From: a virus
Direction: 5' to 3' (one strand)
DNA: 64,000 nucleotides
Virus record (IMG/VR): IMGVR_UViG_3300044681_000369
Span: 32,001 to 96,000 of that record
The position numbers and the translations under genes were made by a program. Under the pieces are notes generated by a model that was not told the DNA's origin, did not search any database, and saw only the letters and a list, made by a program, of their open reading frames with translations. Below, piece by piece: positions 38,321-55,068 of this stretch (its first letter is position 1; each line of letters starts with the position of its first letter).

Positions 38321-38783
38321 GATCTATAATATTTTCTTTTTCTGCTTTTAAGGCTTTCAGTAATTCTTGTGTGCTTCCGGCAAAAACAATATTATTCTGG
38401 GTATCGATATTTTGTGACTTAGATTCTGGATCACGCAACTTCTTTTTTGCGCTTTGAAGAGCAAGCAAGTCTTTAGCCGTATCGCCTGTTGTTTTAATTA
38501 ATTGTCCAACAACCTCATATGCTCTAGGGCTATCGCTTGATAACGCAACATTTAGTGCGCCATCTAAAGCCTTTTCGCTTTTAGTGATGAGATCGTTTAA
38601 TTTTTTTCTTGCTACCTGATAATCATCTTCAATATCATCTCCGGTGGAAACGACTTCAGGTAAAGCTGGCGGGTCTTGAATTGCAGGAAGCTGTTGGGAT
38701 TCTTCCCGCTTTTTTAACGCATCTTCCAGATGTGTTCCAAAAATATCATCAAGTTTATTATAGGGGTTGTTCGTAGGTTTCAT
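38310..38783 (-). CDS. gp16: Terminase small subunit (gp16)
   Basis: DDY..AR, SPRAYEV.GQLIK, NN.VF.GST.EL.K; start trimmed to MKPTN. Confidence 0.9.
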   Translation of the reverse strand: MKPTNNPYNKLDDIFGTHLEDALKKREESQQLPAIQDPPALPEVVSTGDDIEDDYQVARKKLNDLITKSEKALDGALNVALSSDSPRAYEVVGQLIKTTGDTAKDLLALQSAKKKLRDPESKSQNIDTQNNIVFAGSTQELLKALKAEKENIIDHGD

Positions 38784-39549
38784 CAAACTGCTCCACATAG
38801 TCCCAGGCATCAACCACAGTTGCGTCTTCAGGATTTACTGTAACTGTATATTTACGGCTAATATCCGCATTTGTGTCTAAAGTCTCATAAGTCTTAGCAA
38901 TTGCCGTTTTAATAACGCCTTCTTGACTTACTGGACCATAGAAATTTAATGCTAGGGTAAATGATAATTCCCAAACAATTGCTGTTCTCTGAGTAAAGTT
39001 GCCCTCATACACATCTTGATATGTAATTCCGTCTAACCCAATTTCAAGAACTCTTTTGATTCCCATTTCTGGCAAATCATTAATAGAAACAGCAAAGTCT
39101 GGATTAAAAAACGGCAGTATTTGCTCTAATATCTGTAAACCATCATCTTGATTTTTTGCGGCAATATACAAATTAATATTCATATTATATGGTGCCGCAA
39201 CATATTGACTGCGAACGGAGTTTGGTCTATCGTCAACTCCTATCGCCTTATTCTTCTGAATGTAACTGACTTTTCTACTAGGATCATGAGACAGCCCTAC
39301 AATCTCAAAGCCCATTCTGGGAAGTATTGTAGCAACAGTGGCTGGCTGTACGCCATCATCGCCACCAGGAACAGCCTGAACTCTAGTTAAAAACTTATCT
39401 TTTGGAGCATATGCAAGTGGAACTCTGAGAGATTGTACAATCTTGGAAGAGGAATTCAATCTATTGATCGTTATTTGATTGAAGATTGTTCCAAAGGCAA
39501 TAATTGCCTTTCTAATATGCTGATGATAAAAGTGTTGTTTTAAAAACAT
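38758..39549 (-). CDS. gp15: Tail sheath stabiliser/terminator (gp15)
   Basis: FYH..IRK.I.AFGT.FN, VPLAYAPK.KF, LPRMGFE, QILEQILPFF.P. Confidence 0.93.
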   Translation of the reverse strand: MFLKQHFYHQHIRKAIIAFGTIFNQITINRLNSSSKIVQSLRVPLAYAPKDKFLTRVQAVPGGDDGVQPATVATILPRMGFEIVGLSHDPSRKVSYIQKNKAIGVDDRPNSVRSQYVAAPYNMNINLYIAAKNQDDGLQILEQILPFFNPDFAVSINDLPEMGIKRVLEIGLDGITYQDVYEGNFTQRTAIVWELSFTLALNFYGPVSQEGVIKTAIAKTYETLDTNADISRKYTVTVNPEDATVVDAWDYVEQFDETYEQPL

Positions 39550-40289
39550 TATCTAATCTCACCAAATGGGTTGAATGCAGAGAAATCGATAATTCCTTCT
39601 GCTTCGCTTTCTATATCAAGAGTATCATCAATTAATACAGATGTAGTAGATTTGAATTTTTCCATAATAATAGCTTTGCCATATTCATCTACAAGATTAT
39701 TGCCACTCTCGGTCAACACTTGCCATGCAAGTGAATCTTGAGTTTTATCATCTATAGAGTTTTGAATTCCTTCAATATCTGTATCAACAAATTCAGAACT
39801 GTATTCCCAAACCTCACATGCAAGTTTAAATGTATAAATTTTGCCTAATTGATAAAAAGGATTTAGAGCATCAACATATGTTATCTGGAAAAATGTCTGT
39901 GTTTTTGGAAAAAATAAAACATCACCTTCGGCTGGGCGATCTGGCAAAATTAAATTTTCTGCCTGTCTACCGATTGCCTCTTCCCAACGTCTTTTAGAAA
40001 CAACAAATGTTGCTGTGGATCTAAACTCGTATCCAAATTTTGTTAGAAGTTCGCCCTGCCCCTCAAATCCATCAGTATTTTCTAGATACATTTCTAGAGG
40101 ATACGCTTGATTGAAATAACCAATAGGGTCTTGATTAAAAATTGGATCTTGATTTACAATTGTGCGCGGAAGATAATAGACATCATGACCATATATCTTC
40201 ATACTCTCAATAACCAAGTCCTCCAACAAACGCTGTTCGTTGGTGGTACCTGAGGTATTACCAGATTGAAAGTAGAAATTAGTGGGCAT
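39549..40289 (-). CDS. gp14: Neck protein (gp14)
   Basis: EQ.L.EDL..ES..IYG.DVYYLPR, RP.EGD, PFYQLGK, FS..NPFG. Confidence 0.93.
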   Translation of the reverse strand: MPTNFYFQSGNTSGTTNEQRLLEDLVIESMKIYGHDVYYLPRTIVNQDPIFNQDPIGYFNQAYPLEMYLENTDGFEGQGELLTKFGYEFRSTATFVVSKRRWEEAIGRQAENLILPDRPAEGDVLFFPKTQTFFQITYVDALNPFYQLGKIYTFKLACEVWEYSSEFVDTDIEGIQNSIDDKTQDSLAWQVLTESGNNLVDEYGKAIIMEKFKSTTSVLIDDTLDIESEAEGIIDFSAFNPFGEIR

Positions 40290-40292
40290 AAT

Positions 40293-41261
40293 TTATCCCA
40301 CCATAAAATCGACAGGAAGTTCTGATTTAGATTGCATCTCTTGTTCTATTAGTGCAATCTCCTGAACGGCTTCATCATAAACTTGCTGTCCATTCATTAT
40401 GATGCCGCCGGGCAATTGCATGCCGCCAAACTTTTTCATGTTCTCGCCCCACTGTCTTTTAATAAGAGCAGTAGCGTATTTCTTTAAGAACATATCATCA
40501 TAAACTTGGGTAAATGTTTCTGGATCTAAAATACGATAACACTCAACAAGAACAAAGTCGCCTGGTTCAAAAACATCTTCCCAGTTGCAATGAACTTTTA
40601 AAGTGTCCGTTTTACGATTGAAAGAAAATGACCTATCGCCAACAAGAAGCATGTCAAGCATTGACAAGTATTGCTTCATTTGTGTATAGTAAATCATATC
40701 CGCAGATAACAAATTATACATGTCATTTAAACGGAATTGATACACAAGATCAAACATGTTGTTTGCGTTTTGTGAGCCACTGCTGGCTCCATTAATAGGC
40801 AATACTCTAATTACTCCAATTACAGCATCGCTAATGGAAATTTCTCCATTTTGCATGTCGCCGGGAGTATAAAAACTTGTAGATGCGAGTGTGCGAGAAT
40901 ACCCGGACTCTTGTCCAGTTAAATTTTCTCCTGCAACAAAGGTGCCTTGAACCTTTGTAATTGTTACTGTGGTGCTGGCTATAGAATAGACCTTACATGA
41001 GGCGCCAGATGTGTCGCCAATCAATGTTTCGCCCACAGTAAAAGAGGGCGCAGAAAGCCCTGTGAATTTTAGGGTAGCTGTTGTTACTTGGTGTTGAAGA
41101 TATACTCTCTCGACACCATCAAAATGATACTCTTGGAAATATTGCAGAGCGTCATCGATTCGGTCGGAAACCTGATCATCATCAACGTTAATCTCTATTA
41201 CTGGAAAACCAAGTCTGCGTAGACAGTAATCTACCAGCCCCTGTCGTGATGAAATAGCCAT
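40293..41261 (-). CDS. gp13: Neck protein (gp13)
   Basis: YCLRRLG.PVIEINV, YHFDG, K.YATALIK.QWG.N..KF, LPGG. Confidence 0.94.
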   Translation of the reverse strand: MAISSRQGLVDYCLRRLGFPVIEINVDDDQVSDRIDDALQYFQEYHFDGVERVYLQHQVTTATLKFTGLSAPSFTVGETLIGDTSGASCKVYSIASTTVTITKVQGTFVAGENLTGQESGYSRTLASTSFYTPGDMQNGEISISDAVIGVIRVLPINGASSGSQNANNMFDLVYQFRLNDMYNLLSADMIYYTQMKQYLSMLDMLLVGDRSFSFNRKTDTLKVHCNWEDVFEPGDFVLVECYRILDPETFTQVYDDMFLKKYATALIKRQWGENMKKFGGMQLPGGIIMNGQQVYDEAVQEIALIEQEMQSKSELPVDFMVG

Positions 41262-41292: not shown

Positions 41293-41712
41293 TTACCAAG
41301 AAGACAGTGCTATTCTTTTCCAAGTATTTTCTGAAACACAAATATAAAGATAGTTGGCATCGGCAGCCAATTGATTTACTTTTCCGGTTGCCGTAGATGA
41401 AGCCGGTACACTAACATATTCTACGTTAGTAATAACATCACCCAAAGTCTTTGATGCTGAAGATACGTTTGAAACACTACCTAAATTTAGGTTTGTATCT
41501 ACAGCCTGTGTAATTAAACCGAAGTCTTGACTTGATGAAAGATAATAATCGTCTGGTAGATTGCTACCAATTTCAATGATTGCGCCGTCTGTTCTCTTAG
41601 AATATAATGTACCATCTGCTAAATTTATAGCAAGTTCCCCAACCGCAATTTGACCTGCGGTTGGGGTAACGCCACTTGTTTCACTTCTTTTGAGTTGAAC
41701 GGTGGTTGCCAT
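41293..41712 (-). CDS. Small fibre/adaptor module with KRS-type (Mtd-N-like) N-terminal domain
   Basis: MATTVQLKRS...GELAINLADG.LY; C-term P.SSTA.G......D.NYLYIC...NTWKR.AL..W. Confidence 0.7.
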   Translation of the reverse strand: MATTVQLKRSETSGVTPTAGQIAVGELAINLADGTLYSKRTDGAIIEIGSNLPDDYYLSSSQDFGLITQAVDTNLNLGSVSNVSSASKTLGDVITNVEYVSVPASSTATGKVNQLAADANYLYICVSENTWKRIALSSW

Positions 41713-41713
41713 A

Positions 41714-43675
41714 TTAGTTCAACAGATTTCCTGATGCATCATAGACGTTTAGACGATAATAAGAGCCTTGCTGACCATCTAGAAGATCCGCGTCAAGCCC
41801 AGATCCAGAACCGTCCGCAGTCTTAATCGCTGTCAATAACTCTGCCGCCGTTGAATATGTTTCTGAGAAAGAAACTACGCCAGTTGAAGAGTTATAAGAC
41901 AAGTCGCCACTTACACTAATTGCGCTTCTTGCTCTAGCATTTGTGAAATACTGATTAGTGGAGCCTTCTGCCAGATCATCTGTATCGTGGTTTGAGATGC
42001 TATTTGTTGTTCCTGACGAGCCAGTTACGTTACCAGTTACGTTACCGGTTACGTTACCAACAAAGGTGCCAGCAACAAATGTTTCTGCCCCAACAGTCCA
42101 GCGATCATTTGTTTCATCCCACAATAGAGATTTGTTTGCTAAGGTGCCACGCTCAATTTCAATACCACCATTTTCTGATGGAGTTGAACCAGTATAGTTG
42201 CTGTTTAAGACAATTGTATTGTCAGCAATATTTACTGTTTCTGTATTGATTGTAGTTGTTGTGCCACTTACGGTTAGATTACCGTTCAACGTAAGATTGT
42301 CAAACGTTGGACTTGCCGAAGTTGCAACACTCTGACCAATGCTTACTTGACCAGCAACTACAGAGACGCCTGTGCCAGCAGTGATGGCTGCCTGCGCTCT
42401 TGCATTTGTGTAGTAAAGATTTGTTGAACCTTCACTCAAAGCATCAGTATTGTGATTGCTTAAAGAAGCAATTGTGCTTGGTGTTGTATACGACACAACA
42501 CCGGATGCTGAGTTGTAAGACAAAGAACCCGAAACGCTGATTGCGCCTCTAGCTCTTGCATCTGTAAAGTAAAGGTTTGCGCCCTCAGCGAGATCGCCAG
42601 TATCATGATTGCTTAGAGTAGAAACTTGACCAGTAAGATTACCGATAAAGGTTCCAGCAACAAAAGATTCGCCACCTACAGTCCAGCGATCATTTGCTTC
42701 ATCCCATAGTAGCGTAACACTTGTTGAACCGCCGCGAGAAATGCTGATACCAGCATCTTCGGTTGGCACACCAGAAGTGAAGTTGCTATTAAGAACAATC
42801 GTGTTGTCTGCTAAATTTACTGTTTCCGAATTGATGGTTGTTGTTGTGCCTGCAACAGTTAAATTGCCTGTCACATTCAAGTCATCATTTACGGTAACAT
42901 TACCAGTTCCAGCACCAGAAAGAACAAGATTTGTATCATTGTCTTTTGTGGTAATCTGATTTACTTTAATGTTATTACCAAATGAGATTGGATTACCAGC
43001 TGAGTTCGTAACATTTACGCCGTCTTCAAGCTGTAGTGTTCCTTTAACTGCAACAACGCCAGTTCCTGTAGGATCTAACTCTAAGTCACCAGAACCGCTA
43101 GTTTGAAGAACGAGATTTTGGTTAGAGTCGGCAGAAACAACAATGTTACCAGAATTTTCTTCTAGAACTTTCTGACCGTTAACGTAAAGTGAACCAGGAC
43201 CAACGTAAACGTCAGCCCACTGATAGCTAGGTGAACCCAAAGAGTACGTTACGTCTGCGGCAGGAATAATATTTCCGTCAAGTGCAGTTAGTAATGTTTT
43301 AACTCTTGCATCTGTGTAGTAAAGATTTGTTGTACCTTCTGTGATATCATCTGAATCGCCAGACAACTCACTTAAGGCATCTTTAGATTGAATTTGTGTT
43401 GTTACCCAAGAACGCTCTGCAATTGTTGACGTATCAACTGCAATTTCGCCCGTGGAATTGTTGTAATTGATACCAGTGCCGCCACTTAAACTTGTTAGTG
43501 CAATAGCAGTTGTGTTTGACAAGTCTGCTAGAGCCAACTCATAACCGCCTGCAGTTGAACCATCATGTACAACAACAGCAAATTTGCTGGTATCGACCGT
43601 GATTTCGCCCTCTGCACCAGTAAATGATGAGTGCTGTGCGCTAGTGCCTCTTCTTAGTTGTAAAATCGTTGCCAT
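41714..43675 (-). CDS. Fibre protein with Mtd-N-like RRG domain and EG.TNLY.T.AR repeats
   Basis: MATILQLRRGT...FTGAEGEITVDT; 4 x EG..N.Y.T.AR; GNVT repeats; DGSGSGLDADLLDG. Confidence 0.8.
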   Translation of the reverse strand: MATILQLRRGTSAQHSSFTGAEGEITVDTSKFAVVVHDGSTAGGYELALADLSNTTAIALTSLSGGTGINYNNSTGEIAVDTSTIAERSWVTTQIQSKDALSELSGDSDDITEGTTNLYYTDARVKTLLTALDGNIIPAADVTYSLGSPSYQWADVYVGPGSLYVNGQKVLEENSGNIVVSADSNQNLVLQTSGSGDLELDPTGTGVVAVKGTLQLEDGVNVTNSAGNPISFGNNIKVNQITTKDNDTNLVLSGAGTGNVTVNDDLNVTGNLTVAGTTTTINSETVNLADNTIVLNSNFTSGVPTEDAGISISRGGSTSVTLLWDEANDRWTVGGESFVAGTFIGNLTGQVSTLSNHDTGDLAEGANLYFTDARARGAISVSGSLSYNSASGVVSYTTPSTIASLSNHNTDALSEGSTNLYYTNARAQAAITAGTGVSVVAGQVSIGQSVATSASPTFDNLTLNGNLTVSGTTTTINTETVNIADNTIVLNSNYTGSTPSENGGIEIERGTLANKSLLWDETNDRWTVGAETFVAGTFVGNVTGNVTGNVTGSSGTTNSISNHDTDDLAEGSTNQYFTNARARSAISVSGDLSYNSSTGVVSFSETYSTAAELLTAIKTADGSGSGLDADLLDGQQGSYYRLNVYDASGNLLN

Positions 43676-43700
43676 TTTTGTCTCCTATTTCATTCTCTAT

Positions 43701-43913
43701 TTAGCTGCCACTGGAATAGGTTCCACCGTCAAGAACGGCACCGTCATCTAAGTTTGCAAGGTTAGTTTTAAGCAATTCGTGACCACCTGTTGTGCTACCA
43801 TCATGGACTCTAATTGTCCAATTTGTGGTATCAACTGTAATCTCGGCTTGCGCCCCGGTAAAGCTATTGTGTTGAGCTTCTGTACCTCTGCGGAGTTTTA
43901 CTCTAGCTGCCAT
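43701..43913 (-). CDS. Stand-alone Mtd-N-like (RRG-type) module ending in DGGTY
   Basis: Paralog of the N-terminal ~55 aa of 41714..43675. Confidence 0.75.
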   Translation of the reverse strand: MAARVKLRRGTEAQHNSFTGAQAEITVDTTNWTIRVHDGSTTGGHELLKTNLANLDDGAVLDGGTYSSGS

Positions 43914-43915
43914 GG

Positions 43916-44266
43916 TTATAGACTCCCGTAATCAATACTGTTGAACGCTTCAACACTATCAGTAATTAAGCCATAGTCTAAGTCAAATTGATTATTCAAT
44001 CTGACAATGGCTACACCTGGTGTTGTTTCGGTATCAACATAGAAGTCTGTAAAAGCTGTATCAGCAAACGAAATTGTAGAAACACTTGCTGTGTTGTCTC
44101 CATTGTTTACTTCTACGCCACCCATGGCTACTACAGTACCGTCGCTCTTTTTAGAGAATATCTTTCGATCGGTGAGGTTAATGGCAAGTTCGCCAACTGC
44201 TAAATCGGCAGCCGATGGCTCAGAGCCAGTAGTCTCACTCCTTTTAACCTGTACTATTGTAGACAT
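43916..44266 (-). CDS. KRS-type fibre adaptor with two DYG motifs
   Basis: MSTIVQVKRS...GELAINLTD; LDYGLIT...IDYGSL. Confidence 0.7.
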   Translation of the reverse strand: MSTIVQVKRSETTGSEPSAADLAVGELAINLTDRKIFSKKSDGTVVAMGGVEVNNGDNTASVSTISFADTAFTDFYVDTETTPGVAIVRLNNQFDLDYGLITDSVEAFNSIDYGSL

Positions 44267-44280
44267 TGATTTGCCCTGCC

Positions 44281-44499
44281 CTATTCTTTATTAAATGATC
44301 CGTTTTCCCAATCATCAGTTTGCTTTTTACTTGATTTACTGTCTTTGTTGACCGCTTTATCTAGTGCGGCAGTCAACTCTTGTATTTGTTCATTAGCCAT
44401 TGACAATTGAGTCTTTAGCATAATATTGTCAAGAGACATTGCTTTTACTTGTTCAGCTAGATTATTGATGTAGCTGTTTATAAACTTAGTCTGATCCAT
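44281..44499 (-). CDS. Small coiled-coil protein (possible fibre chaperone)
   Basis: Heptad-like LAEQVKAMSLDNIMLKTQL; follows the fibre gene. Confidence 0.6.
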   Translation of the reverse strand: MDQTKFINSYINNLAEQVKAMSLDNIMLKTQLSMANEQIQELTAALDKAVNKDSKSSKKQTDDWENGSFNKE

Positions 44500-44517
44500 T
44501 ATTTACTCTCAAGTTGT

Positions 44518-44537
44518 GGGGGAGCAAAAGCCCCCCC
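44518..44537 (-). other. GC-rich intergenic hairpin after the fibre gene
   Basis: GGGGGGGC-TTTT-GCTCCCCC; no U tract. Confidence 0.5.
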
Positions 44538-44553
44538 GTTTCATTTACTATTA

Positions 44554-46116
44554 TTAGTAAGTGCCACCGTCGATGTTGCCAAACGATGGGGCATTACCTG
44601 AACCATTTGATAGAAGAACCTGACCGGCTGTGCCTACTGCGGTTGCCTGAATGGCGCTTGTGCCGCCACCAAAGAGAACACCGTTAGCAGTTAGCGTTGT
44701 TGCGCCAGTACCACCATCTGCTACACCGATTGCAGCCGAAAGACCGGAAACTGTGCCGCCAGATAGTGAACCCTCAAGGTTAGCAACAAGTGTTGCTACT
44801 GTGTAACCCGAACCGGCAACGTCAACAGTTGTTGTTGGTGCAGATTGTAGATCCTTGAAGAGTCTCCACTTGCCGTCAGTAGCATCACGGAATAGACCGG
44901 CATAGAGGTCCTGTGAGCCTGTCGAATCGTACATACCGAAGAGACCGAGGTCAACTGCGTCGGTTGCGTTATTGTCGTTACCAACAAAGATGAGTGGGTC
45001 AGTTACAGAAATCGTTGACGAGTTGACAGTTGTGGTTGTACCAGTTACTGTCAAGTTACCGGCAACAGTGATGTTACCAGCAGTGATATCGTCCGAATAA
45101 AGTGTACCATCAACAGTTACGTCATTGAATGTTACGTTATCTGTGGTACCAACTGCCTGACCGATGCTTACAACACCATTAGTTACATCAACACCAGTGC
45201 CGGCTGTGATAGCTGCCTGCGCTCTTGCGTCTGTGAAGTAAAGGTTGTTTGCGCCTTCTTGCACATCGTCTGTATCGTGGTCTGATAGTGTGAAGCCTAC
45301 AACACCGCCGGCGTAAGTTAGATCGCCAGAAACGCTGATAGCTGCCTGCGCTCTTGCGTCTGTGAAGTAAAGGTTGTTTACACCTTCAGCTACAGTATCA
45401 GAATCACCTTGAGTGTAGCTAATTTCACCAGTTGATGAGTCATAGCTTAGTGAACCAGTGGCAGAGATTGCGCCTCTTGCGCGGGCGTCTGTATAATACT
45501 GATTGGTAGCACCTTCACCAATATCGTCTGTGTCTAGTACAACTGCACCGACTTCACCGTTTACGCTTGTAACGCCACCGGTTACGTTGATGACACCAGT
45601 AGAAGAGTCATAAGTTGCGGCGCCAGTTACGCTGATTGCACCACGTGCGCGGGCATCAGTAAAGTATAGGTTGCTTGAACCTTCGCTTAGACCATCTGTA
45701 TCGTGGTTGCTGATATCTGAAACTGTACCAGTTACGTTACCTGTTACGTTACCAGTTACGTTACCAGTTACGTCACCAGTAAGATCACCAGTTACGTCAC
45801 CAGTAAGATCACCAGTTACGTCACCAGTAAGGTCAGCGGTAATTACGCCTGCGCTGAAATTGCCTGAAGCATCACGCTTAACTAGTGTGCTTGCTGTGTT
45901 GGCATTTGTTGCTGAATCGACGGCAGAAGTATAAAACTTACCACCGATAGCTTCAATGACAGCACTACCACTTGAGTTTACGGACTCAATATAGAGTTTC
46001 GCACCTGCGCCATTATTACTGGCGTCTTCAGCATATGCCAACTCGCCTTCTAGCAAATCGCTAGTTGTTGGAGCGGCTGAACCGGAACTTCTCTTAATTT
46101 GAATAATTGTGGACAT
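44554..46116 (-). CDS. Fibre protein, KRS-type N-terminus, GxxT and EG.NLYFTDAR repeats, ends IDGGTY
   Basis: MSTIIQIKRS...EGELAY; (GDVT/GDLT/GNVT)n; 4 x EG..N.Y.TDARA. Confidence 0.8.
   Translation of the reverse strand: MSTIIQIKRSSGSAAPTTSDLLEGELAYAEDASNNGAGAKLYIESVNSSGSAVIEAIGGKFYTSAVDSATNANTASTLVKRDASGNFSAGVITADLTGDVTGDLTGDVTGDLTGDVTGNVTGNVTGNVTGTVSDISNHDTDGLSEGSSNLYFTDARARGAISVTGAATYDSSTGVINVTGGVTSVNGEVGAVVLDTDDIGEGATNQYYTDARARGAISATGSLSYDSSTGEISYTQGDSDTVAEGVNNLYFTDARAQAAISVSGDLTYAGGVVGFTLSDHDTDDVQEGANNLYFTDARAQAAITAGTGVDVTNGVVSIGQAVGTTDNVTFNDVTVDGTLYSDDITAGNITVAGNLTVTGTTTTVNSSTISVTDPLIFVGNDNNATDAVDLGLFGMYDSTGSQDLYAGLFRDATDGKWRLFKDLQSAPTTTVDVAGSGYTVATLVANLEGSLSGGTVSGLSAAIGVADGGTGATTLTANGVLFGGGTSAIQATAVGTAGQVLLSNGSGNAPSFGNIDGGTY
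45725..45835 (-). repeat. 12-bp tandem coding repeat (GDLT/GDVT/GNVT)
   Basis: accagttacgtc/accagtaagatc/accagttacgtt units on the plus strand. Confidence 0.85.
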
Positions 46117-46139
46117 ATTAGCCTATTCCTCTTTTTTTG

Positions 46140-46352
46140 TTAAAATGTGCCGCCATCTACGCGGGTTATTGTTTGCTCGTCCAGGGATTTTGCTTCCCAC
46201 TTCTTTGTTGTAGCATTATAAACTAAAGTGTCACCTTCACCTACATCGTCAATAACAACGTCCTTAAGAGACGAAACCAACACAGATGACTTTGTACTAA
46301 CGACACTTGTATTTATATTTTTTGTTAATGGAACGGTGACTTTAATTGCCAT
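46140..46352 (-). CDS. Small fibre adaptor ending VDGGTF
   Basis: L.DV...G.TLVYN....KW motif; C-term DGGTF. Confidence 0.7.
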   Translation of the reverse strand: MAIKVTVPLTKNINTSVVSTKSSVLVSSLKDVVIDDVGEGDTLVYNATTKKWEAKSLDEQTITRVDGGTF

Positions 46353-46681
46353 TATCTGGTAACCTCCGGATTAACAACTATGATGCCTTCTAACACACGC
46401 ATAGTCTCGCCATTTCCAGTAATTTCAACATCATAAACATATCTGCCGGCTTTTACTGCACCGGACTCGCTTGCAGATAACGAAATAATAACTTCACCAT
46501 CTAAAGGTGAAGATATTGTTGCATTCAAATCGATATAAGTATTAGTATAATACGACCGACGCATTTGAGCGGCAGCAGTATAATCAGACAAGTCCAACGG
46601 TTCGTCAGTCTGATCATTAACATTGAGTGAAGCGTTAAATGTACTTCCTTGATCAATGTAAAGATTTTTGATTGTAGCCAT
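46352..46681 (-). CDS. Conserved T4-like virion structural protein (BppU-N-like adaptor)
   Basis: NLYIDQGSTF, LDL..Y...AQMR.SY, GRYVYDVEI, RVLEG...V.PEVT. Confidence 0.75.
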   Translation of the reverse strand: MATIKNLYIDQGSTFNASLNVNDQTDEPLDLSDYTAAAQMRRSYYTNTYIDLNATISSPLDGEVIISLSASESGAVKAGRYVYDVEITGNGETMRVLEGIIVVNPEVTR

Positions 46682-46735: not shown

Positions 46736-47422
46736 ATGAAGACCATTTTAATGCTAAAATATGGCACAAAATACTCTAAAATAGATGTTGATAGAATTAT
46801 TTCTGCCACCGGCGGAAAGTATCATTATGCTTGTATAACTGATGATCCAGATCTAGACCCTAGAGTCCAGATAATCCCTATTCCAGATGATATAGACGGA
46901 ACATTCCGCAAGATTTGGATGTACAGTCTGGAAAATCTGGGTGATATACTGTATTTAGACTTGGACGTTCGTATACAAAAAGATATCGATCACCTATGGA
47001 AATATATTGACAATACACCAACAATAGTGTATACTTATTGGAAAGATGTGGGTTTTGTAGATCAACCGCATAGTGGTTACAGTATGCAGTATCTAAGCAA
47101 CTACAACTCTAGTGCAGTCCTCTGGAAATCTGGATCTCCTGACGCTAAAATTATATGGGAAAAATTTTCCGAAGACCCAGATTACTATCAAATTAAGTAT
47201 TGGGGAGACGATAGATTTCTTTGGCACGAAGGATTCAAATTTAAATGGTTTCCAAAAGGCGAGTTCTACTCTTTTCTATATGGAGCAGACTTCTATGTTC
47301 CAGAGTTGAAGACATGTGATCGATATCGACCAGAATATACAATAGCACTATTAAACGGATTGGACTTATACCCGGAGCACGACAAATTATATGATGATCT
47401 TTCTAACAATAAAATGGGGTAA
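46736..47422 (+). CDS. GT-A fold glycosyltransferase-like protein, paralog 1
   Basis: KYG.KY, CITDD, LYLDLDV, NSSAVLW, GDD.F. Confidence 0.75.
   Translation: MKTILMLKYGTKYSKIDVDRIISATGGKYHYACITDDPDLDPRVQIIPIPDDIDGTFRKIWMYSLENLGDILYLDLDVRIQKDIDHLWKYIDNTPTIVYTYWKDVGFVDQPHSGYSMQYLSNYNSSAVLWKSGSPDAKIIWEKFSEDPDYYQIKYWGDDRFLWHEGFKFKWFPKGEFYSFLYGADFYVPELKTCDRYRPEYTIALLNGLDLYPEHDKLYDDLSNNKMG
47007..47035 (+). promoter_or_regulatory. Internal sigma70-type promoter
   Basis: TTGACA-17-TATACT inside GT paralog 1. Confidence 0.45.
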
Positions 47423-48167
47423 GAAATACCCAGCCAAGTATGTAAACAATCTATACAACATGGTAAAGAGAAACTATGTTGGAGACTTTAGATTTGTATG
47501 TTACACGGATGATCCTCAACGAATCAATAAAGAAATTGAAGTCGTTCCTATTCCAGATGACGGACTACTTCATCCAAAATACTACTTTGGTAAAGAAGAT
47601 TATTGCTTTGACCGAGCAAAATTCCTAGTATTCAACTCTGAAGAGTGGCTTGAAAATGTGTCTTTCGTGGACACATTTTGCTACTTCGATCTGGATGTTG
47701 TAATTCAAGGCGACATTAGCATTATCGATGATCTGGCACAAAAGCCCAGACTAATTCATTGCTTTTGGCAAAAACCAGGCTACGACAAAGATGATAGATT
47801 TTTTATCGATACTCGAGGAACATACTACAACTCAAGTATGATGCTTTGGTCTTATCGTCAATGCAGTCATATATACTACGATGTCTTCGAAAACAGAGAC
47901 ATCATTTTTAAGACCTTCTTCAAAGGCTCAGACAACTATCACTACTGGAGACAAAAGAACTTCTGGAAAAATATTCCAGAAACTTGGTGTTATTCTTGGA
48001 ACAGAGGTCGATATTATCCAGAAGATGTAGAAGCATTTAAGTTTAGACCAGATGCCGCAATCTGTTTATTCAATACGGATAATGTTCCAGATCCTGTGTC
48101 AAAAACTCACACAGAGTTAGACAAGTGTAAAGACAAAAACATCAAAAAATTATGGACGGCAAAATGA
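47391..48167 (+). CDS. GT-A fold glycosyltransferase-like protein, paralog 2
   Basis: KWG.KY...YVN.L, F.CYTDD, YFDLDVVI, NSSMMLW. Confidence 0.78.
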   Translation: MMIFLTIKWGKKYPAKYVNNLYNMVKRNYVGDFRFVCYTDDPQRINKEIEVVPIPDDGLLHPKYYFGKEDYCFDRAKFLVFNSEEWLENVSFVDTFCYFDLDVVIQGDISIIDDLAQKPRLIHCFWQKPGYDKDDRFFIDTRGTYYNSSMMLWSYRQCSHIYYDVFENRDIIFKTFFKGSDNYHYWRQKNFWKNIPETWCYSWNRGRYYPEDVEAFKFRPDAAICLFNTDNVPDPVSKTHTELDKCKDKNIKKLWTAK

Positions 48168-48991
48168 GAGTTAATTATATCTGTTGCAAATGGGGAACAA
48201 AATATGGTCCCGAGTTTGTCAATCGACTAAATCGGATGGCTAGACTAAACACGCCAGACAAATATGATGTACATTTCTATTGTTATACCGATGATGCTAA
48301 GGGACTAGACGAGAATATTACTCATATTGATTTTCCAGATATTCCAGAAATTCACCCTAAGTATTGGTTTGGATCTGATAACTTCAAGTATGGTATGGCT
48401 CGTTGCTGGGACAGACCAAAAACGATGATATTCAACACTCACAATTTTGCTCCAGACAAACCTACTGGCAAATTTATCTTTTTTGATTTGGACGTAATCA
48501 TCCAAAGTGATCTAACTCCGATAATTGAGTATGATTATGATAATCCTCGAAAGTTGCGCTCTTGGTGGCAAGATCCAAGACCTATGAAGACTAGACAATT
48601 CAAACTCAGTCACGGAGCATACACAAATGGCTCTTGTATGGCATGGATGGATGATCAGACTGAATGTATCTGGCAAGATGTTTTAGAAAATCAAGAGCGT
48701 ATATGGTTTACGTTCACAGATGGAACAGATAACTATCACAGTTGGCGTTGGGGAGATTTTAGACCTGACGGCAAACCACCTTTATGGAAACATTTTCCAA
48801 AAGAATTTGCGTACTCATATAACAGAGGAAGAGATTGGGATTCTAATGACCTAGAAGTAGGTATATATAGAAAAGATGCTATTATTTGTGTGTTCAATGT
48901 GGACTTGCTCCCATTCCAAGATAATAGTCGTGGTAAGGTAAAACAAGCATCGCTAGTTGATCCAGACCTATTAGCGCATTGGGATATATAA
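48164..48991 (+). CDS. GT-A fold glycosyltransferase-like protein, paralog 3
   Basis: KWGTKY, FYCYTDD, FFDLDVII, NGSCMAW. Confidence 0.78.
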   Translation: MRVNYICCKWGTKYGPEFVNRLNRMARLNTPDKYDVHFYCYTDDAKGLDENITHIDFPDIPEIHPKYWFGSDNFKYGMARCWDRPKTMIFNTHNFAPDKPTGKFIFFDLDVIIQSDLTPIIEYDYDNPRKLRSWWQDPRPMKTRQFKLSHGAYTNGSCMAWMDDQTECIWQDVLENQERIWFTFTDGTDNYHSWRWGDFRPDGKPPLWKHFPKEFAYSYNRGRDWDSNDLEVGIYRKDAIICVFNVDLLPFQDNSRGKVKQASLVDPDLLAHWDI

Positions 48992-48992
48992 A

Positions 48993-49676
48993 ATGATTAA
49001 CATTTATACAGTAAAGTGGGGACAGAAGTATGGTCCCGAAGCAGTAAACGCAATTCATGACCAATGTAAAAAATACATTACCGAAGAATTTGATTTTTAT
49101 TGCTTGACAGAATATCCTCACGATTTAAATCCGGATATTCTTGTTATTGATTTCCCAAAAGGAAATTACTATGAGAAATGGTGGAACAAACTCCATCTAT
49201 TTGACCCAAACGTTGTTTCTCAAAAAGGCGAAAAGTTATTTTTCGATTTGGATGTGCAGATACAATCGAATATTGATTGTATTGTAAACTACGATCCCGG
49301 GGATAAACTTACCTTTGTTAGAACATGCTGGCACAATTTGAAAAAAATGAAGCGAGATGTTAAAGATATTCCTTGGGCATATACTGAGCTAAACTCTTCC
49401 GTTTTACGCTGGAACGACATGTTTGACGGAAAGAAAATCACAAAGTTTGTTAAAGATTATCCTTCTCAAATGTTTTTCTACTATCGCGGTCTAGATAATC
49501 TTTTTGGTCATCAACGTGAAAGGCTGTTAAAGATTGATCATTTTCCAGACGGCTGGGTATACAGTTATAATAACGGCTATATATGGCCAACAGATGTGAG
49601 AAAGCACACCCTAAGAGAAGATCCGCTAATTTGTTTGTATGATTCTATGGAGCGACCAGAAGATGTTAAGCTATAA
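48993..49676 (+). CDS. GT-A fold glycosyltransferase-like protein, paralog 4
   Basis: KWGQKY, FYCLTE, WWNKL.LF, FFDLDV.I, NSSVL.W. Confidence 0.78.
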   Translation: MINIYTVKWGQKYGPEAVNAIHDQCKKYITEEFDFYCLTEYPHDLNPDILVIDFPKGNYYEKWWNKLHLFDPNVVSQKGEKLFFDLDVQIQSNIDCIVNYDPGDKLTFVRTCWHNLKKMKRDVKDIPWAYTELNSSVLRWNDMFDGKKITKFVKDYPSQMFFYYRGLDNLFGHQRERLLKIDHFPDGWVYSYNNGYIWPTDVRKHTLREDPLICLYDSMERPEDVKL

Positions 49677-50319
49677 CTTTTTGAATAATTATCGAAATTG
49701 GGGCGATGGCCTCGATAAGATTAGCCACGAAATGCCTTGGAAACATGAAGACTTTAGAAAGTCTTTGAATCCAAATACTATGGAAGCCGCAATCTGGTTG
49801 GTAGAAGAACTAAAGCCACTTTTGCCTAAAAATAAAGGACTAGATATTACTGTTCTTAATTCCTGGCTTGGTTTTCCTTTAGTTCCACTTCTTTGTGAAA
49901 ATCTTTCAATAACTAAAATCAACCTTATTGATGTTGATAATGATGCACTTGAGTTATCCAAAGTTTTTAATAGGTATTATGTCGAACAGGGTATTGATTT
50001 AAATCATATTAATTGGGATATACCTTTTGCATATCATGATATTAATGCCCTTGAAACAGATGTTGTCATCTCTATGTGTGCAGAAACCATGTATCCACTT
50101 AGAGAAATGACCACCGCAAACAAAAAGTGTATCTTTGCATGTCAATCTTCAAACGTGTTTAAAGAAATGTATGGCATAAATTGTGTGCCTACAATAGAAG
50201 CACACATTGAAAATGTAGGTATTAAGACTGCAAAGTATACCGGAGAGATTAAGCAGTTTTATTACAGCTTTGATGGTAAAACCGAATTTGATCGTTTTAT
50301 GGCAATAGGAACAAAATAA
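49663..50319 (+). CDS. Class I SAM-methyltransferase-like protein (degenerate motif I)
   Basis: ITVLNSWLG...INLIDVD...A...SK; DVVI..C.E.M pattern of Rossmann-fold MTases. Confidence 0.5.
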   Translation: MLSYNFLNNYRNWGDGLDKISHEMPWKHEDFRKSLNPNTMEAAIWLVEELKPLLPKNKGLDITVLNSWLGFPLVPLLCENLSITKINLIDVDNDALELSKVFNRYYVEQGIDLNHINWDIPFAYHDINALETDVVISMCAETMYPLREMTTANKKCIFACQSSNVFKEMYGINCVPTIEAHIENVGIKTAKYTGEIKQFYYSFDGKTEFDRFMAIGTK

Positions 50320-50320
50320 C

Positions 50321-51259
50321 ATGGGCAGAGTAAGAATTGTTGCACCACCTCCAGAAAACTTTATTCCTGTTCCGCTTGAGCAGACTCACGTATCCATTGA
50401 TGTAAACAACGATGGAGTAATTGATGTGAAAGATGAGATTGAATTAAAGCAAGACGAAGAATCTAGACTAAAACTAGAAGAAGAGATCAAAAGAAAGGAT
50501 GAAATTGCAAAGCAAATTCATCAAGACTTGCTAAAGAAAAAGAAGTTGGATGAAAAAAAGAAACTCCGGGCTGAAAAAGCGGCAACAAAAACTATATTGG
50601 CAACCAGAGAAAACTCTCAGCTTAAAGCAATTCTAAAGAAGAAAGATATTCAGATTGAAGAATTGCTCACAAAAATCTCGTCAATCGAAAGTTCTATTTC
50701 AGAAACTGCCTTAAAGCAAGAAGGCGCAATTGATCTAATGCGCAAAGAAATCTCTCTAATGAGAGAACAGAAGCTGGCAGCCGAAAAGGCTAGAGATGAA
50801 ACACTAATGAAATACCGTGAGCAATCTGTCGGACAATCTCAATTGAGAACCAAAGAATCTGCCAGAATTGTAGAACTAGAAACTGAACTAAAAGAAACCA
50901 AAGCAAAAATTCAAGTGGCTAGAGAAGAGGCATTACTGATCTTTAGAGAAGAACAGAGTCGAAAAAAAGAAACTCAGATCCGAGCCGCACAAGATTTGAA
51001 GATACAAAACATCAAGTCATCGTCAACCTGGTGGTCAAATTTTGTAGCTTTTGTAAAGCGCAAAAAGATTGAGTTGTCTATGGCAGGAATTACAAATTAT
51101 GAGGCGGCAGTTATTGTCCGAACAAAATTTGCAATTCCAAAAATGTTAGATGACATTGAGAGAATGCATGAGCAACTGGCAATCTTGGAAGAAATGATTG
51201 CTATGCTTGAAAAGAATAAGTCTAAGTCTCAGAAAGAGAACCAAAGTCCTGCCCAGTAA
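50321..51259 (+). CDS. Long coiled-coil protein with EF-hand-like loop
   Basis: DVNNDGVIDVKD; ~190-aa E/K/Q-rich helix; WWSNFVAFVKRKK amphipathic segment. Confidence 0.65.
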   Translation: MGRVRIVAPPPENFIPVPLEQTHVSIDVNNDGVIDVKDEIELKQDEESRLKLEEEIKRKDEIAKQIHQDLLKKKKLDEKKKLRAEKAATKTILATRENSQLKAILKKKDIQIEELLTKISSIESSISETALKQEGAIDLMRKEISLMREQKLAAEKARDETLMKYREQSVGQSQLRTKESARIVELETELKETKAKIQVAREEALLIFREEQSRKKETQIRAAQDLKIQNIKSSSTWWSNFVAFVKRKKIELSMAGITNYEAAVIVRTKFAIPKMLDDIERMHEQLAILEEMIAMLEKNKSKSQKENQSPAQ

Positions 51260-51878
51260 TATCTTCAATCATCATTTTCCAGAAACTCTCATCTGGAATA
51301 ACATAGCCTAATGTAATTCTTTTACTCTTGGAACCGGCACAGTGATACCACACTTTGTCGGTTTCACTTCTTCTGCCAAAATAGCCCACTTTAACTGACC
51401 ATCCTTTAGGATCCAAAAGAGTTACCATTTCTTTGGTAATAGGATCACGATACCTAAAATAACCAGCTTCAGCTTCTGGGTTGTATGTTAAAAGAATGTT
51501 ATATCCAGAAGCATTCCAGTTTGTGTGCCAGCCCATAAATCCGCCTTCTGGATAATAGACATGTACCGCGTTTGTCTTTGCACCCAAGAACGAGATTAAT
51601 TCTCTATTCAATAGACGTTGCTTTTCTCTGTGTGCTTCTGGTATACCTGGAGTTAAACTAATATCACAACAATATGCGACTTCAGGAAATCCAACGTGAT
51701 CTCCATCTTTTTTAACTATATGATCTAGGTACTCTTTGTTAGTTGCAGATTCCATAGTATGTCCATGGACTCTATCTGGTTCTTTTAGCTTTGCGTGATC
51801 CGTCTGAGAGAAAAACCAATCTGTATAAGGAGTAACGATATCTAAAAGCTCATCGCTAATTGTATTTGTAAACTTCAT
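51222..51878 (-). CDS. 2OG-Fe(II) oxygenase / cupin-like protein
   Basis: YPEGGFMGWHTN...WYHCAG...RITLG (HxN...H...R arrangement). Confidence 0.6.
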   Translation of the reverse strand: MKFTNTISDELLDIVTPYTDWFFSQTDHAKLKEPDRVHGHTMESATNKEYLDHIVKKDGDHVGFPEVAYCCDISLTPGIPEAHREKQRLLNRELISFLGAKTNAVHVYYPEGGFMGWHTNWNASGYNILLTYNPEAEAGYFRYRDPITKEMVTLLDPKGWSVKVGYFGRRSETDKVWYHCAGSKSKRITLGYVIPDESFWKMMIEDITGQDFGSLSET

Positions 51879-51881
51879 GTA

Positions 51882-52604
51882 TTATGCGTTCCTTATGGAC
51901 GGCGGCAAAGTATAGTGATGAATAATTTTAGGTTGACCTTTTAATTCTTCTTCTTTGTATCCGATAACAAAGTTCCAACGTGCGTCTGGATCAGGAAATC
52001 TTCCAGTCTTAACTCCCATGTTACCGTAAGTCAATAGACGCCACATTGTAAAGGTGTCCCATTCCAGTGCTTCTTTTGGATAATGTTCGTGATCGTATCC
52101 AGGTTCCTGTTGCTTTAGATACTCACCCCACCAAGCACTCATTAAATTGATTGTTTTTGGATTATGTCTGTAAACAAATAGTCCACAATGCTCTGTCATC
52201 TCTTCTGTGTTTGACAGCTTTGTGATTGCCGCGTTATATGGACGATTTGCTGTAAAGATAATATCAACGTTTTTTGGAATTTGATCGAAAATTGTTGTAA
52301 TATCTTCATGCACAATTTCAGTATCGCAATCCAAATATGCCGTTATATCATATGGAGTTTTGTCTAATGCCCAAAGTTTTGCCCGATGGTGTCTAGGAAC
52401 ACCATCGGTAATGATGTTCTCAAAAATTTCATAGTCTTCATCCTCTACCCACTCTTCATGCGTGAATAGAGTAATTTTAGCTTCAGGAAAATAATCTAAA
52501 AGAGATAACGCTGAATTCTTTGCGGCTAGATAGTAGCCTCTACGAAGAGATGCCACATAAAGAAATCCCTTTTTTACAATATTACCATCATTCTTCTGTC
52601 GCAT
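51882..52604 (-). CDS. GT-A (GT8-like) nucleotide-diphospho-sugar transferase
   Basis: GFLYVA, SA.SL, KL.AL..TPYD.T.YLDCD, GLFVY, RWN, I.HH. Confidence 0.75.
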   Translation of the reverse strand: MRQKNDGNIVKKGFLYVASLRRGYYLAAKNSALSLLDYFPEAKITLFTHEEWVEDEDYEIFENIITDGVPRHHRAKLWALDKTPYDITAYLDCDTEIVHEDITTIFDQIPKNVDIIFTANRPYNAAITKLSNTEEMTEHCGLFVYRHNPKTINLMSAWWGEYLKQQEPGYDHEHYPKEALEWDTFTMWRLLTYGNMGVKTGRFPDPDARWNFVIGYKEEELKGQPKIIHHYTLPPSIRNA

Positions 52605-53137: not shown

Positions 53138-54574
53138 TTAAGCAGTTCTTACCCAAAGAGTTACTGTTGAGACAACATCTTTGTTTGAGACAATGGTGTC
53201 ACCTGCATATGTACCAGAGTAAGAACCTGAGTAAGTTCTTGAGCCAGCGTATGAGCCTGAATAAGTTCTTGAGCCAGAGTATGAGTTTGCATATGTGCCA
53301 GAGTAAGTTCTGCTACCCGCATAGTTTGCGGAATAAGTTCTTGAGCCAGAGTATGAGTTTGCAAAGTACAGTGTGCCTGATGTATATGTGCCGGAATATG
53401 TTCTGCTACCAGCAAAGGAACTAGAAAAGTATTGTGTTGCAGAAACGTATGAGGCAGAATATGTTCTGGTTCCGGCAAAGTTACCGTTTAGATAACCACC
53501 GTAATATCTAGCATATGAGCCAGAATATGTTCTGCTACCAGAATATGGTCTTGTGCCGCCGTATGTTGAAACGTATGAGCCAGAATATGTTCTGCTGCCC
53601 GAATAGTTTCTAGTACCGGCATATGTATTTGCATATGAGTCAGAATATGTTCTGGATCCCGCATACTGAGAGGGGCTTGACGAATATGTTCTCGTACCAC
53701 CATAGGTATTTGTGTATGAAGAGCTATATGATCTTGTACCGCCATAGCTGGTGCTATAAGTTCTAGTGCCACCATATGAGCCAGTATAGTTTTGTGATAT
53801 AACCTGTTCTCTGGTATCCGAAGCGGATCCCATATTTACCCATGTTCCGCCAGAAGGCGTAGATGCTTGCAGTTTGTATGTGCCAACACCAGATGCAATA
53901 ATTCTATTTCTAAAATTAGCAGTCATCTGTTTAATTTCCGCATCAGTCATTGCAGTGACATTATTTCCGGAAACTTTTAGAGGACGCAAATCTGAATTAG
54001 CAGACGAAGTTGCGGCAGTTTTTTGCCAAATGTAGTAGGTTGTATTTCCGCCGTTTGCTACGTCTGTAATCGTATAGCGAGATGTCCATGTGCCACCGGT
54101 TGGTGCTGAACCAGAAAGACGATATTGACCGGCAGTATAATCGGATTCAGTTACCATAGCAGAAATAACTTTATCTAAGATATCTGTGCTAATTTCAGCG
54201 TTTGATAGTTGCTTAATACCACCAGAAACAGTGTCAAAACCAACTGTTCTAGCAGTAATTGATTCCGTGGCTGAAGATGTAACTTGCTTTGCGTAATATG
54301 TTACGGTTGCGGTGGAACCAGTTGCAGGGTGAGTACCAGTTGCTTCTGTTCGATCAGTATCAGAAAATGTACCGATAGATGTTCCAGTGAGTGCGTTTGC
54401 TGTATCAAGATTGATATCTGCTGGATTGCTGCCGTTACTTGCCGCTGTTGCAAAGTCTGTTGTAATTTGACTTGCAATATAGTTTTTTACTTCCGCGTCG
54501 GACATAACCTGCAAACCTTGAAAGTTTGCAGAGGTGATTGGCGAACCAGAAGCCTTTAGTCTTAATGGATTCAT
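53138..54574 (-). CDS. Virion fibre with C-terminal Tyr/Ser/Gly/Thr repeat needle
   Basis: Three M/L(S/T).AE(V/I) and two G.Y.L....P.GGTW repeats; ~190 aa of (xxxY)/(xGxRxY) units; ends TLWVRTA. Confidence 0.75.
   Translation of the reverse strand: MNPLRLKASGSPITSANFQGLQVMSDAEVKNYIASQITTDFATAASNGSNPADINLDTANALTGTSIGTFSDTDRTEATGTHPATGSTATVTYYAKQVTSSATESITARTVGFDTVSGGIKQLSNAEISTDILDKVISAMVTESDYTAGQYRLSGSAPTGGTWTSRYTITDVANGGNTTYYIWQKTAATSSANSDLRPLKVSGNNVTAMTDAEIKQMTANFRNRIIASGVGTYKLQASTPSGGTWVNMGSASDTREQVISQNYTGSYGGTRTYSTSYGGTRSYSSSYTNTYGGTRTYSSSPSQYAGSRTYSDSYANTYAGTRNYSGSRTYSGSYVSTYGGTRPYSGSRTYSGSYARYYGGYLNGNFAGTRTYSASYVSATQYFSSSFAGSRTYSGTYTSGTLYFANSYSGSRTYSANYAGSRTYSGTYANSYSGSRTYSGSYAGSRTYSGSYSGTYAGDTIVSNKDVVSTVTLWVRTA
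53205..53790 (-). repeat. Degenerate coding repeat RTYSGSYAGS
   Basis: Recurrent gagccagaatatgttctgct / gagtaagttcttgagcc units on the plus strand. Confidence 0.9.
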
Positions 54575-54585
54575 CGAAAGTTACC

Positions 54586-55068
54586 TTAGTTTAATCTGGT
54601 TCCAGATTCATCGTAAATTACAAGTGGGGTATTTGTATACCAGTCGGTACCATCTTTTGCAACAAAGGTTGCAGAAGTATACCCAGCCATTGTAACTGCC
54701 GCGTCTGAAGACCCGCCGTTAATTTTATCGCCAGTATTTGGATAAACTTTCAATGCTGTTCCTGTCGTATTAACTACTGTGTAGACTAACGCGGCAGAAG
54801 CAACTGGAAGTTTAACACCTTGTCCAGCACTTACTGTGGTAACAATGCTATTTGTAGCCGATAAGGCAGTAGCACCGCTCTGATCTGTACCAGCGGCAGA
54901 TACTGTAGCACTAATAGATGGCTTGAGGTCACCAGACAGAGTAAGCGTGCCAAAGCTAGGATTATCCCCAGACTGATACTTATCTGTATTAAGATTGTTA
55001 AAGTTATTATCAACCTCAGTGTTCGTTAGGGGCGAACCTTTAGCCGATCTTAAAGTGATTGTTGACAT
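54586..55068 (-). CDS. Short fibre/adaptor virion protein
   Basis: MSTITLR..KGSPLTN.EVD.NF..LN.DK anchor-like N-terminus; ends IYDESGTRLN. Confidence 0.7.
   Translation of the reverse strand: MSTITLRSAKGSPLTNTEVDNNFNNLNTDKYQSGDNPSFGTLTLSGDLKPSISATVSAAGTDQSGATALSATNSIVTTVSAGQGVKLPVASAALVYTVVNTTGTALKVYPNTGDKINGGSSDAAVTMAGYTSATFVAKDGTDWYTNTPLVIYDESGTRLN

Follow-up and report, generated by a model that had tools for sequence, protein, structure and literature searches.

The fibre cluster and its end motifs

The window analysed here, 64,000 nucleotides (nt) long, comprises bases 32001-96000 of the 140,970-bp IMG/VR record IMGVR_UViG_3300044681_000369, which is estimated to be 86% complete, and it carries a cluster of small and large fibre genes at 41293-46681. 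The neck genes gp15 (PF16724), gp14 (PF11649) and gp13 are encoded next to this cluster, at 38758-41261. Since these genes could be identified and gp13 is about 40% identical to the gp13 of cyanophages and of Pelagibacter phage HTVC008M, the virus is a T4-like aquatic myovirus. The fibre cluster consists of eight minus-strand genes directly upstream of gp13, at the genome place that is held in T4 by gp12 and wac. From the gp13-distal end, they are the following (lengths in amino acids, aa):

46352..46681, minus strand: p109, a 109-aa Ig-like protein related to T5 p132 and DT57C LtfC
46140..46352, minus strand: S70, a 70-aa anchor adaptor with an N-terminus of its own (MAIKVTVP..) and the end ..VDGGTF
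44554..46116, minus strand: K520, a 520-aa repeat-rich fibre with the gp37-N-like N-terminus MSTIIQIKRS and the end ..IDGGTY
44281..44499, minus strand: a 72-aa coiled-coil protein, with weak coiled-coil Pfam matches only
43916..44266, minus strand: A116, an adaptor with the N-terminus MSTIVQVKRS and the end ..DLDYGLITDSVEAFNSIDYGSL, which holds a bipartite hook, DLDYGLIT..(8)..IDYGSL
43701..43913, minus strand: R70, a minimal socket plus hook, with the N-terminus MAARVKLRRG (Mtd_N) and the end ..LDGGTYSSGS
41714..43675, minus strand: Rfib653, with the Mtd_N socket MATILQLRRG, a shaft of internal repeats and the end ..YDASGNLLN
41293..41712, minus strand: K139, with the N-terminus MATTVQLKRS, a bipartite-hook copy inside the chain, DFGLITQAVDTNLNLGSV, and a tip domain of about 55 aa added after it

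Two types of N-terminal domain, here called sockets, thus recur in the cluster together with short C-terminal motifs, here called hooks. A census of the whole record found KRS-type N-termini three times and RRG-type N-termini twice, in the cluster only. The motif DGGT[YF] occurs three times, each 0-4 residues from a C-terminus and all in the cluster, and D[YF]GLIT is restricted to two cluster genes. Bare D[YF]G, with 14 matches genome-wide, is uninformative. An earlier note on this DNA, made from the letters alone, had picked out these motifs and N-termini. All of them lie on the minus strand where it had placed them, and they are conserved in relatives. It had also counted two separate DYG motifs in A116 and set aside an extra DFG motif in K139 as one with no obvious partner. 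The former are better described as a single bipartite module, which elsewhere mostly stands before one Mtd_N gene. The latter is indeed present but is not a stray motif, as it belongs to the internal module copy DFGLITQAVDTNLNLGSV. This copy aligns with the terminal IDLGDIT..YDMGSL of an 80-aa protein, K80, found at the position of K139 in most freshwater relatives; K139 itself matches phrog_1699 at its N-terminus and phrog_17312 at its C-terminus.

The end motifs are kept in more than 100 related viral contigs. A freshwater clade (80 contigs, gp13 72-82% identical) and a marine clade (gp13 52-57% identical) both retain the cluster together with its motifs. At the invariant hook residues the codons vary synonymously, with six codons in use for Leu, four for Thr and three for Gly; therefore, selection on the hook motifs acts at the protein level and the motifs are not a product of chance. 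S70 is represented in both clades by a gene of 71-88 aa with the end IDGGT[YF], and an xGGT[YF] end is found in 114 of the best 120 cluster representatives of the R70 family. The RRG fibre varies in length from 69 to 1097 aa among relatives with both ends retained. In its 69-aa forms (L018:3142-3348 and L038:9512-9718), the whole shaft is gone and the protein consists of the Mtd_N domain and a ..YDAAG.LLN end only. In most related loci the 72-aa coil gene comes right after the K-fibre gene, a position kept in both clades, and its product may be an assembly factor or a component of a joint.

The marine order runs p109, S8x (end IDGGTF), K4xx (KRS socket, end DGGTY), the coil gene, A10x (K[RK][SN] socket, end ..EDLGSVA), R84 (RRG socket, end IDGGTY), Rfib (end ..IYNAAGTKLN) and gp13. 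The earlier note had drawn attention to matching numbers of motifs and domains. The match holds in this record for DGGT and KRS (three each) but not in the marine clade, where three DGGT hooks face two KRS sockets and one bipartite module faces two RRG sockets, so that the correlation of motif counts is not kept across related genomes. Four marine records, each of 55-77 kb and only 31-43% complete, yielded no further KRS gene. Some cluster variants are without R84 and others without both A116 and R70, and the presence of R70 is uncorrelated across clades with that of the last KRS protein.

Both long-fibre genes contain 12-nt tandem repeats (45703-45854 and 42008-42087) coding for (T/V)G(D/N)(V/L)T units, and they have repeats of 69-116 nt in common. 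These repeats are likely substrates for variation in shaft length.

Docking domains and end motifs in other phages

The RRG type is the Pfam domain Mtd_N (PF18454), present in exactly two Pfam copies in this genome: R70 scores 60.5 bits over residues 5-41 and Rfib653 53.9 bits over residues 6-41, with a cut-off of 26.3. R70 also matches Mtd of the Bordetella phage (PDB 1YU0, E-value 2.6e-10 in phmmer). The KRS type corresponds to the N-terminus of T4 gp37, to which A116 is identical at 25 of 51 positions (49%, E-value 8e-15). The phrog_1699 profile, from the "long tail fiber distal subunit" families, matches the same type with E-values of 9e-14 and 4e-15. A tblastn search with the KRS domain gave matches to the gp37 start in about 1000 records of Straboviridae, and the domain gave no sequence match in the PDB. 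In T4 itself, the N-terminal part of gp37 is where trimeric gp36 attaches (PMC3004832). Judged by these matches, both socket types are already known docking ends rather than new families. In Synechococcus phage ACG-2014f (L087), a very large KRS-type fibre gene (record 179209-191112) is preceded by a putative endonuclease gene, not by a hook gene.

By their sequences, the C-terminal hooks form one family, phi-D-x-G-x-phi, where phi is a hydrophobic residue. T4 gp36 ends in ..VQDFGYY. Four further Straboviridae genera have DFGEF, DYGTF, DFGTF and DFGTF at the C-terminus of the protein encoded immediately upstream of the gp37-type one. Since DFG and DYG ends stand before KRS sockets in these T-even relatives, a distinction between DGG and DYG, on which the earlier note had built its pairing of hooks with sockets, does not separate the two socket types. 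Genes upstream of Mtd_N genes have comparable ends: ..IDFGTL in the T7-like phage S-TIP37, ..GLADLGGIA in Bbp9 of BPP-1, ..VNLGGLA in Pseudomonas phage AH02 and ..VDLGSVA in HTVC008M, as well as the bipartite ..DFGMITD..TATGLA in Vibrio phage K437b and ..DYGLVTEN..DDGGLS in Vibrio phage D69.

A broader view came from a scan of prokaryotes, one genome per species, with the Mtd_N profile, which yielded 74 loci with 67 non-redundant upstream open reading frames (ORFs). A terminal D-[YFLMW]-G, at most five residues from the stop, was found in 34 of these 67 upstream ORFs compared with 12 of 2450 ORFs in a background made up of the other six-frame ORFs of the same loci, spurious and non-coding ones included (Fisher p 4e-48, a value that ignores kinship between loci that are not phylogenetically independent). 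The bipartite form, D.G-(8-18)-D.G, was present in 28 of the 67 and in 5 of the 2450, respectively. Typical upstream ends, ..DLDYGLISGLPTSATDYGSIA and ..EDYGLITGSLTSQADYGSIA, closely resemble the end of A116, ..DLDYGLITDSVEAFNSIDYGSL, and most bipartite modules outside this lineage precede a single Mtd_N gene. The residue that follows G-x also differs with the socket downstream. Before Mtd_N genes (66 prokaryote loci), it is aliphatic in 23 cases, of another kind in 12 and aromatic in none (0 of the 35 motif-bearing loci), whereas before gp37-type sockets in Straboviridae it is aromatic in five of five. The S70 and K-fibre hooks of the present lineage end in Y or F.

Among the scanned loci, some deserve separate mention. 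In L134, L138 and similar alphaproteobacterial loci, a bipartite D-x-G end is carried by a Phage-tail_3 / Rcc01698_C protein of about 700-830 aa, that is, a host-specificity protein of the gene transfer agent (GTA) type, and a diverged Mtd_N-like gene (MSVQVKRRRD..) follows it. The same hook-socket joint may therefore operate in GTA-like elements. Three other loci, L108 (PCBP01000045.1), L110 (NHEL02000031.1) and L113 (QCHO01000030.1), come from entries for bacterial metagenome-assembled genomes or genomes of single cells (Flavobacteriales, Prochlorococcus) and contain fibre and neck genes of phages; they probably represent phage contigs that were binned with cells or were attached to them.

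Predicted docking and candidate topologies

Complex prediction was run on three copies of A116 together with three copies of R70, each supplied with an alignment of its relatives. This pair, in which a DYG-type hook faces an RRG socket, passed with a score of 0.79 (0.81, 0.75 and 0.79 in the individual runs), compared with 0.00 for the best of three controls; of 80 solved complexes, 58 reach the mark applied to this score, as do 2 of 110 mismatched pairs. The predicted contacts agree between runs to at least 86%, the pLDDT (predicted local distance difference test) of the partner is at least 89 and the same contacts recur in all three copies. In the model, residues 93-106 of A116 (QFDLDYGLITDSVE) contact residues 1-10, 14-15, 18, 20-21, 23 and 26 of R70. 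More specifically, the hook strand DLDYGLIT is predicted to lie against the socket strand MAARVKLRRG, with D97 near K6. The A116 monomer, modelled with AlphaFold2 (AF2), reached a pLDDT of 51, too poor for a fold search. Stop-codon readthrough fusing A116 to R70 was considered and rejected, as the two genes share a reading frame in this record, whereas in relatives they overlap or lie in different frames.

Co-variation within the freshwater loci points in the same direction. In a subclade of four (L021, L024, L032 and L036), the hooks of the anchor and of the long fibre read [SN]GGTY instead of DGGTY, and both KRS-type sockets read KSS instead of KRS and AE instead of GE. Neither the RRG socket nor the ..LLN end differs there, and the genes for A116 and R70 are absent. 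When the S70 hook was compared with the K-fibre socket over 67 loci, D went with KRS in 63 and S or N with KSS in 4, with no exceptions.

The cluster also encodes a candidate base for the fibre. The p109 protein matches phrog_3304, "L-shaped tail fiber protein assembly" (E-value 1.4e-22), and its AF2 model has a pLDDT of 92. The top Foldseek matches of this model in the PDB are 8hqz_T/Q from the DT57C baseplate and 7qg9_L/J from the T5 tail tip (chains of 137-140 aa; E-values 2e-8 to 6e-8, TMq 0.71-0.77). In DT57C, the LtfC ring is entered by LtfA chains (PMC10713586). In HTVC008M, the p109 homologue is followed by a 1020-aa fibre whose N-terminus is S70-like; since the two N-termini resemble each other, S70 looks, from its sequence, like a detached fibre base bearing a hook. 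The p109 protein is a likely docking platform for the first fibre piece.

A third end motif, YD.SG..LN, occurs twice in the whole record and is exactly C-terminal both times, as the earlier note had seen. One copy closes Rfib653, while the other belongs to a second group of fibre genes:

54586..55068, minus strand: p160, a 160-aa small fibre protein with a GSPLTNTEVDNNF-type N-terminus and the end ..IYDESGTRLN
53138..54574, minus strand: needle fibre with Tyr/Ser/Thr repeats and the N-terminus M.PL[KR].KAS..P

The end of p160 is kept in both clades as [YF][DN]xxGxR[LV]N. In freshwater and marine relatives alike, a needle gene with the M.PL[KR].KAS..P N-terminus always starts 2-15 nt after the p160 stop. 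Since a gene with a conserved N-terminus thus follows, YD.SG..LN ends may be joints, possibly of a third type, rather than chain termini. Comparison of the needle N-terminus with the KRS domain by hhalign and hmmsearch revealed nothing beyond a six-residue strand, LKIKAS/IQIKRS.

Collectively, these observations lead us to favour, with moderate confidence, a serial plug-in fibre of a T4-like phage, in which D-x-G hooks would dock into gp37-N and Mtd_N sockets. The fibre would be encoded as six to seven separate proteins, each presumably a homotrimer. Every piece except the first would start with a docking domain of about 45 residues, of the T4 gp37 N-terminal type or Mtd_N, and all pieces, the first included, would end in, or contain, the hydrophobic-Asp-x-Gly-x-hydrophobic motif in its single or bipartite form. 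At each joint, the docking domain would offer its first basic beta-strand (phi-x-phi-[KR]-[RK]-[SG]) for pairing with the hook strand, the hook Asp standing opposite a socket Lys or Arg. The principle that joins gp36 to gp37 in T4 would thereby be reused several times in series, with very small adaptors, and the first piece, S70, would probably be held by the T5 p132/LtfC-like collar protein p109. We infer the order of the pieces and their seat on the neck or baseplate. Homologies, conservation, adjacency statistics and co-variation are observed, and the A116-R70 interface is predicted by modelling. The general idea of the earlier note, that a C-terminal motif docks on the N-domain of another fibre protein, thus finds support in the T4 precedent, in gene adjacency, in co-variation and in the A116-R70 model.

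Several points weigh against this proposal. The case for docking is wholly computational, and A116-R70 is the only pair modelled; within this pair, the terminal IDYGSL of A116 falls outside the confident predicted interface. The KSS/[SN]GGTY co-variation probably reflects a single evolutionary event in one clade. A search of about 330 loci, and of the longer relatives of A116, turned up no protein in which hook and socket are naturally fused. Homology between KRS and RRG could not be demonstrated by hhalign of the two alignments (probability 2.3%, E-value 0.02). The prokaryote enrichment is tempered by its background and by the kinship of its loci, and 31 of 66 Mtd_N loci show no motif upstream.

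Even if hooks dock into sockets, the pieces may form a line that follows the gene order, a line in a permuted order, or a fibre that branches at A116. A linear chain in gene order is not accepted outright as the whole answer, because DGGTY ends would then have to serve both socket families. A stricter code would assign aromatic-ended hooks (D-[FYG]-G-x-[FY]-COOH) to KRS, and to Mtd_N those with an aliphatic end or a bipartite form (D-[YFLM]-G-[SG]-[LIV](A)); we hold it only tentatively and consider it rather unlikely. The physical order would then differ from the gene order or the fibre would branch: either both RRG proteins would sit on A116, or the pieces would follow one another as S70, K520, A116, R70, K139/K80 and Rfib. 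The residue after G-x speaks for such a code, being never aromatic before Mtd_N (0/35) and always so before the gp37-N type (5/5), and so do the common freshwater counts, which fit exactly, with three aromatic hooks for three KRS sockets and two bipartite hooks for two RRG sockets. The permuted freshwater chain uses every socket once and leaves the KSS co-variation fully paired. Indeed, the KSS clade changed both aromatic-type hooks and both KRS-type sockets but neither RRG nor LLN. Moreover, the A116-R70 model uses the first DYG only and leaves the second free, and in Vibrio phage K437b two Mtd_N genes likewise follow one module. On the other hand, the marine counts (three DGGT to two KRS, one module to two RRG) do not fit, either in the cluster or in the 55-77 kb of four records. 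R70 and the last KRS protein come and go independently across clades, the aromatic hook of R70 directly precedes an RRG gene in every genome and bipartite modules mostly precede one Mtd_N gene. A YD..G..LN end also precedes both a KRS gene and a KAS-type gene, and the code would permit runaway A116-R70 polymerisation. Still more speculative, and in our estimate doubtful, is a general grammar across tailed phages (aromatic to gp37-N, aliphatic or bipartite to Mtd_N) that this lineage would use combinatorially with converter adaptors of 67-116 aa. If it were true, A116 would convert KRS to aliphatic and R70 would convert RRG to aromatic, and a branched fibre, or one of variable length built of repeating A116-R70 units, could result.

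Other explanations dispense with docking between pieces altogether. Beta-structured fibres commonly fold from a C-terminal nucleus, as in T4 fibritin and the adenovirus fibre. The motifs could thus be foldon-like nuclei for folding or trimerisation, or tags by which an assembly chaperone, for instance the 72-aa coil protein, recognises the pieces, while the N-domains would attach each protein separately. Besides this general precedent, relatives keep the motif even on K80 and Rfib, where the distal end is presumed to be, and the A116 monomer pLDDT of 51 is what an obligate oligomer chain would be expected to give. We nevertheless regard this explanation as improbable, for it leaves unexplained why the motifs stand just upstream of gp37-N and Mtd_N genes, why hook and socket co-vary, why the A116-R70 prediction succeeds when its controls score 0.00, and why proteins of 67-80 aa consist of socket plus hook only; furthermore, binding of gp36 to the N-terminal region of gp37 is established for T4. 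The junctions could also serve as DNA-level recombination linkers for the shuffling of fibre cassettes, with the protein motifs as a by-product. The joint presence or absence of A116 and R70, the shaft range of 69-1097 aa, the swapped last gene and the repeated DNA segments inside the fibre genes would be compatible with this. However, the free codon variation at invariant hook residues points to conservation of the protein, and the motif recurs in unrelated phage groups without DNA similarity, which makes such a role of the junctions very improbable indeed.

Neighbouring genes, known systems and meaning

An island at 46736-52604 separates the two groups of fibre genes. It carries, on the plus strand, paralogous genes of about 230-280 aa, a methyltransferase-like gene and a gene for a 312-aa coiled-coil protein, along with two minus-strand genes (51222-52604). 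HTVC008M has 2OG-Fe(II) (2-oxoglutarate/iron) oxygenase genes at the equivalent place, and the island may be a virion-modification system. Beyond the second group, at 55306-61473, lies the gene for a 2055-aa structural protein with DUF4815 (PF16075, E-value 5e-55) and a long Thr/Ala/Pro-rich tract, whose counterpart in HTVC008M bears the annotation VrlC.

That fibre proteins attach to one another in series is textbook knowledge for T4. Like the T4 long tail fibre (gp34-gp35-gp36-gp37), the cluster has separately encoded pieces in series, trimeric in T4; its KRS domain resembles the gp37 N-terminus, the DFGYY end of gp36 is of the same end-motif type, and in T4 the gene order equals the physical order. 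Unlike T4, it would have five to six joints, adaptors down to 67-80 aa, a second socket family, Mtd_N, and a place next to neck genes. The gp36 family PF03903 was not detected by Pfam in S70, K520 or A116, nor in the genome, a genome search in which the control genomes were also silent; the likeness to gp36 is confined to the terminal motif. Nothing of the size or annotation of gp34 or gp35 is present in the cluster, although no search was aimed at these two proteins. The literature searched held no residue-level description of the T4 gp36-gp37 joint.

Mtd of phage BPP-1 provides the second comparison. The RRG sockets are Mtd_N domains, and bbp9, with its aliphatic-class hook, lies upstream of the Mtd gene; the literature searched gave no account of the way in which Mtd is fixed to Bbp9. 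BPP-1, however, is podovirus-like and has one Mtd with a C-type lectin tip and a diversity-generating retroelement, whereas in the present cluster Mtd_N heads a 70-aa adaptor and a repeat fibre.

As for lateral fibres, p109 shares the fold of the T5 and DT57C collar protein that holds lateral-fibre N-termini, and DT57C has a branched fibre made of two proteins (PMC10713586). These phages differ from the present virus in being siphoviruses with the collar at the tail tip and with fibre proteins unrelated to those of the cluster; the mode in which LtfB attaches to LtfA was not resolved in DT57C. In other branched complexes, receptor-binding proteins (RBPs) are joined via conserved N-terminal modules, as in CBA120 (TSP1-4), G7C (gp63.1/gp66) and Klebsiella phages with T4 gp10-like anchors. 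Branching in such RBP complexes goes through gp10-like or XD domains, whereas the candidate joint of the cluster is a short terminal strand. No cluster protein gave a Pfam or PHROG match to a gp10-like or XD branching domain.

Serial C-to-N joining as in T4, N-terminal docking modules, branched fibres, Mtd_N and the gp37 N-terminus are thus already known. Compared with the literature searched, what seems to be new is the D-x-G end motif as the partner of both domains across many phage groups, the minimal socket-plus-hook adaptors of 67-116 aa and the number of joints in one cluster. A short C-terminal motif that would partner two common docking domains spans myo-, podo- and siphovirus-like elements and many prophages. 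If the joint is confirmed, the assembly order of multi-gene fibres would become readable from genomes, and the 67-116 aa proteins would offer natural plug-and-socket parts for swapping receptor-binding modules in laboratory phages. The present lineage shows the parts of the joint in minimal form, in which the fibre shaft can vanish while both ends are kept.

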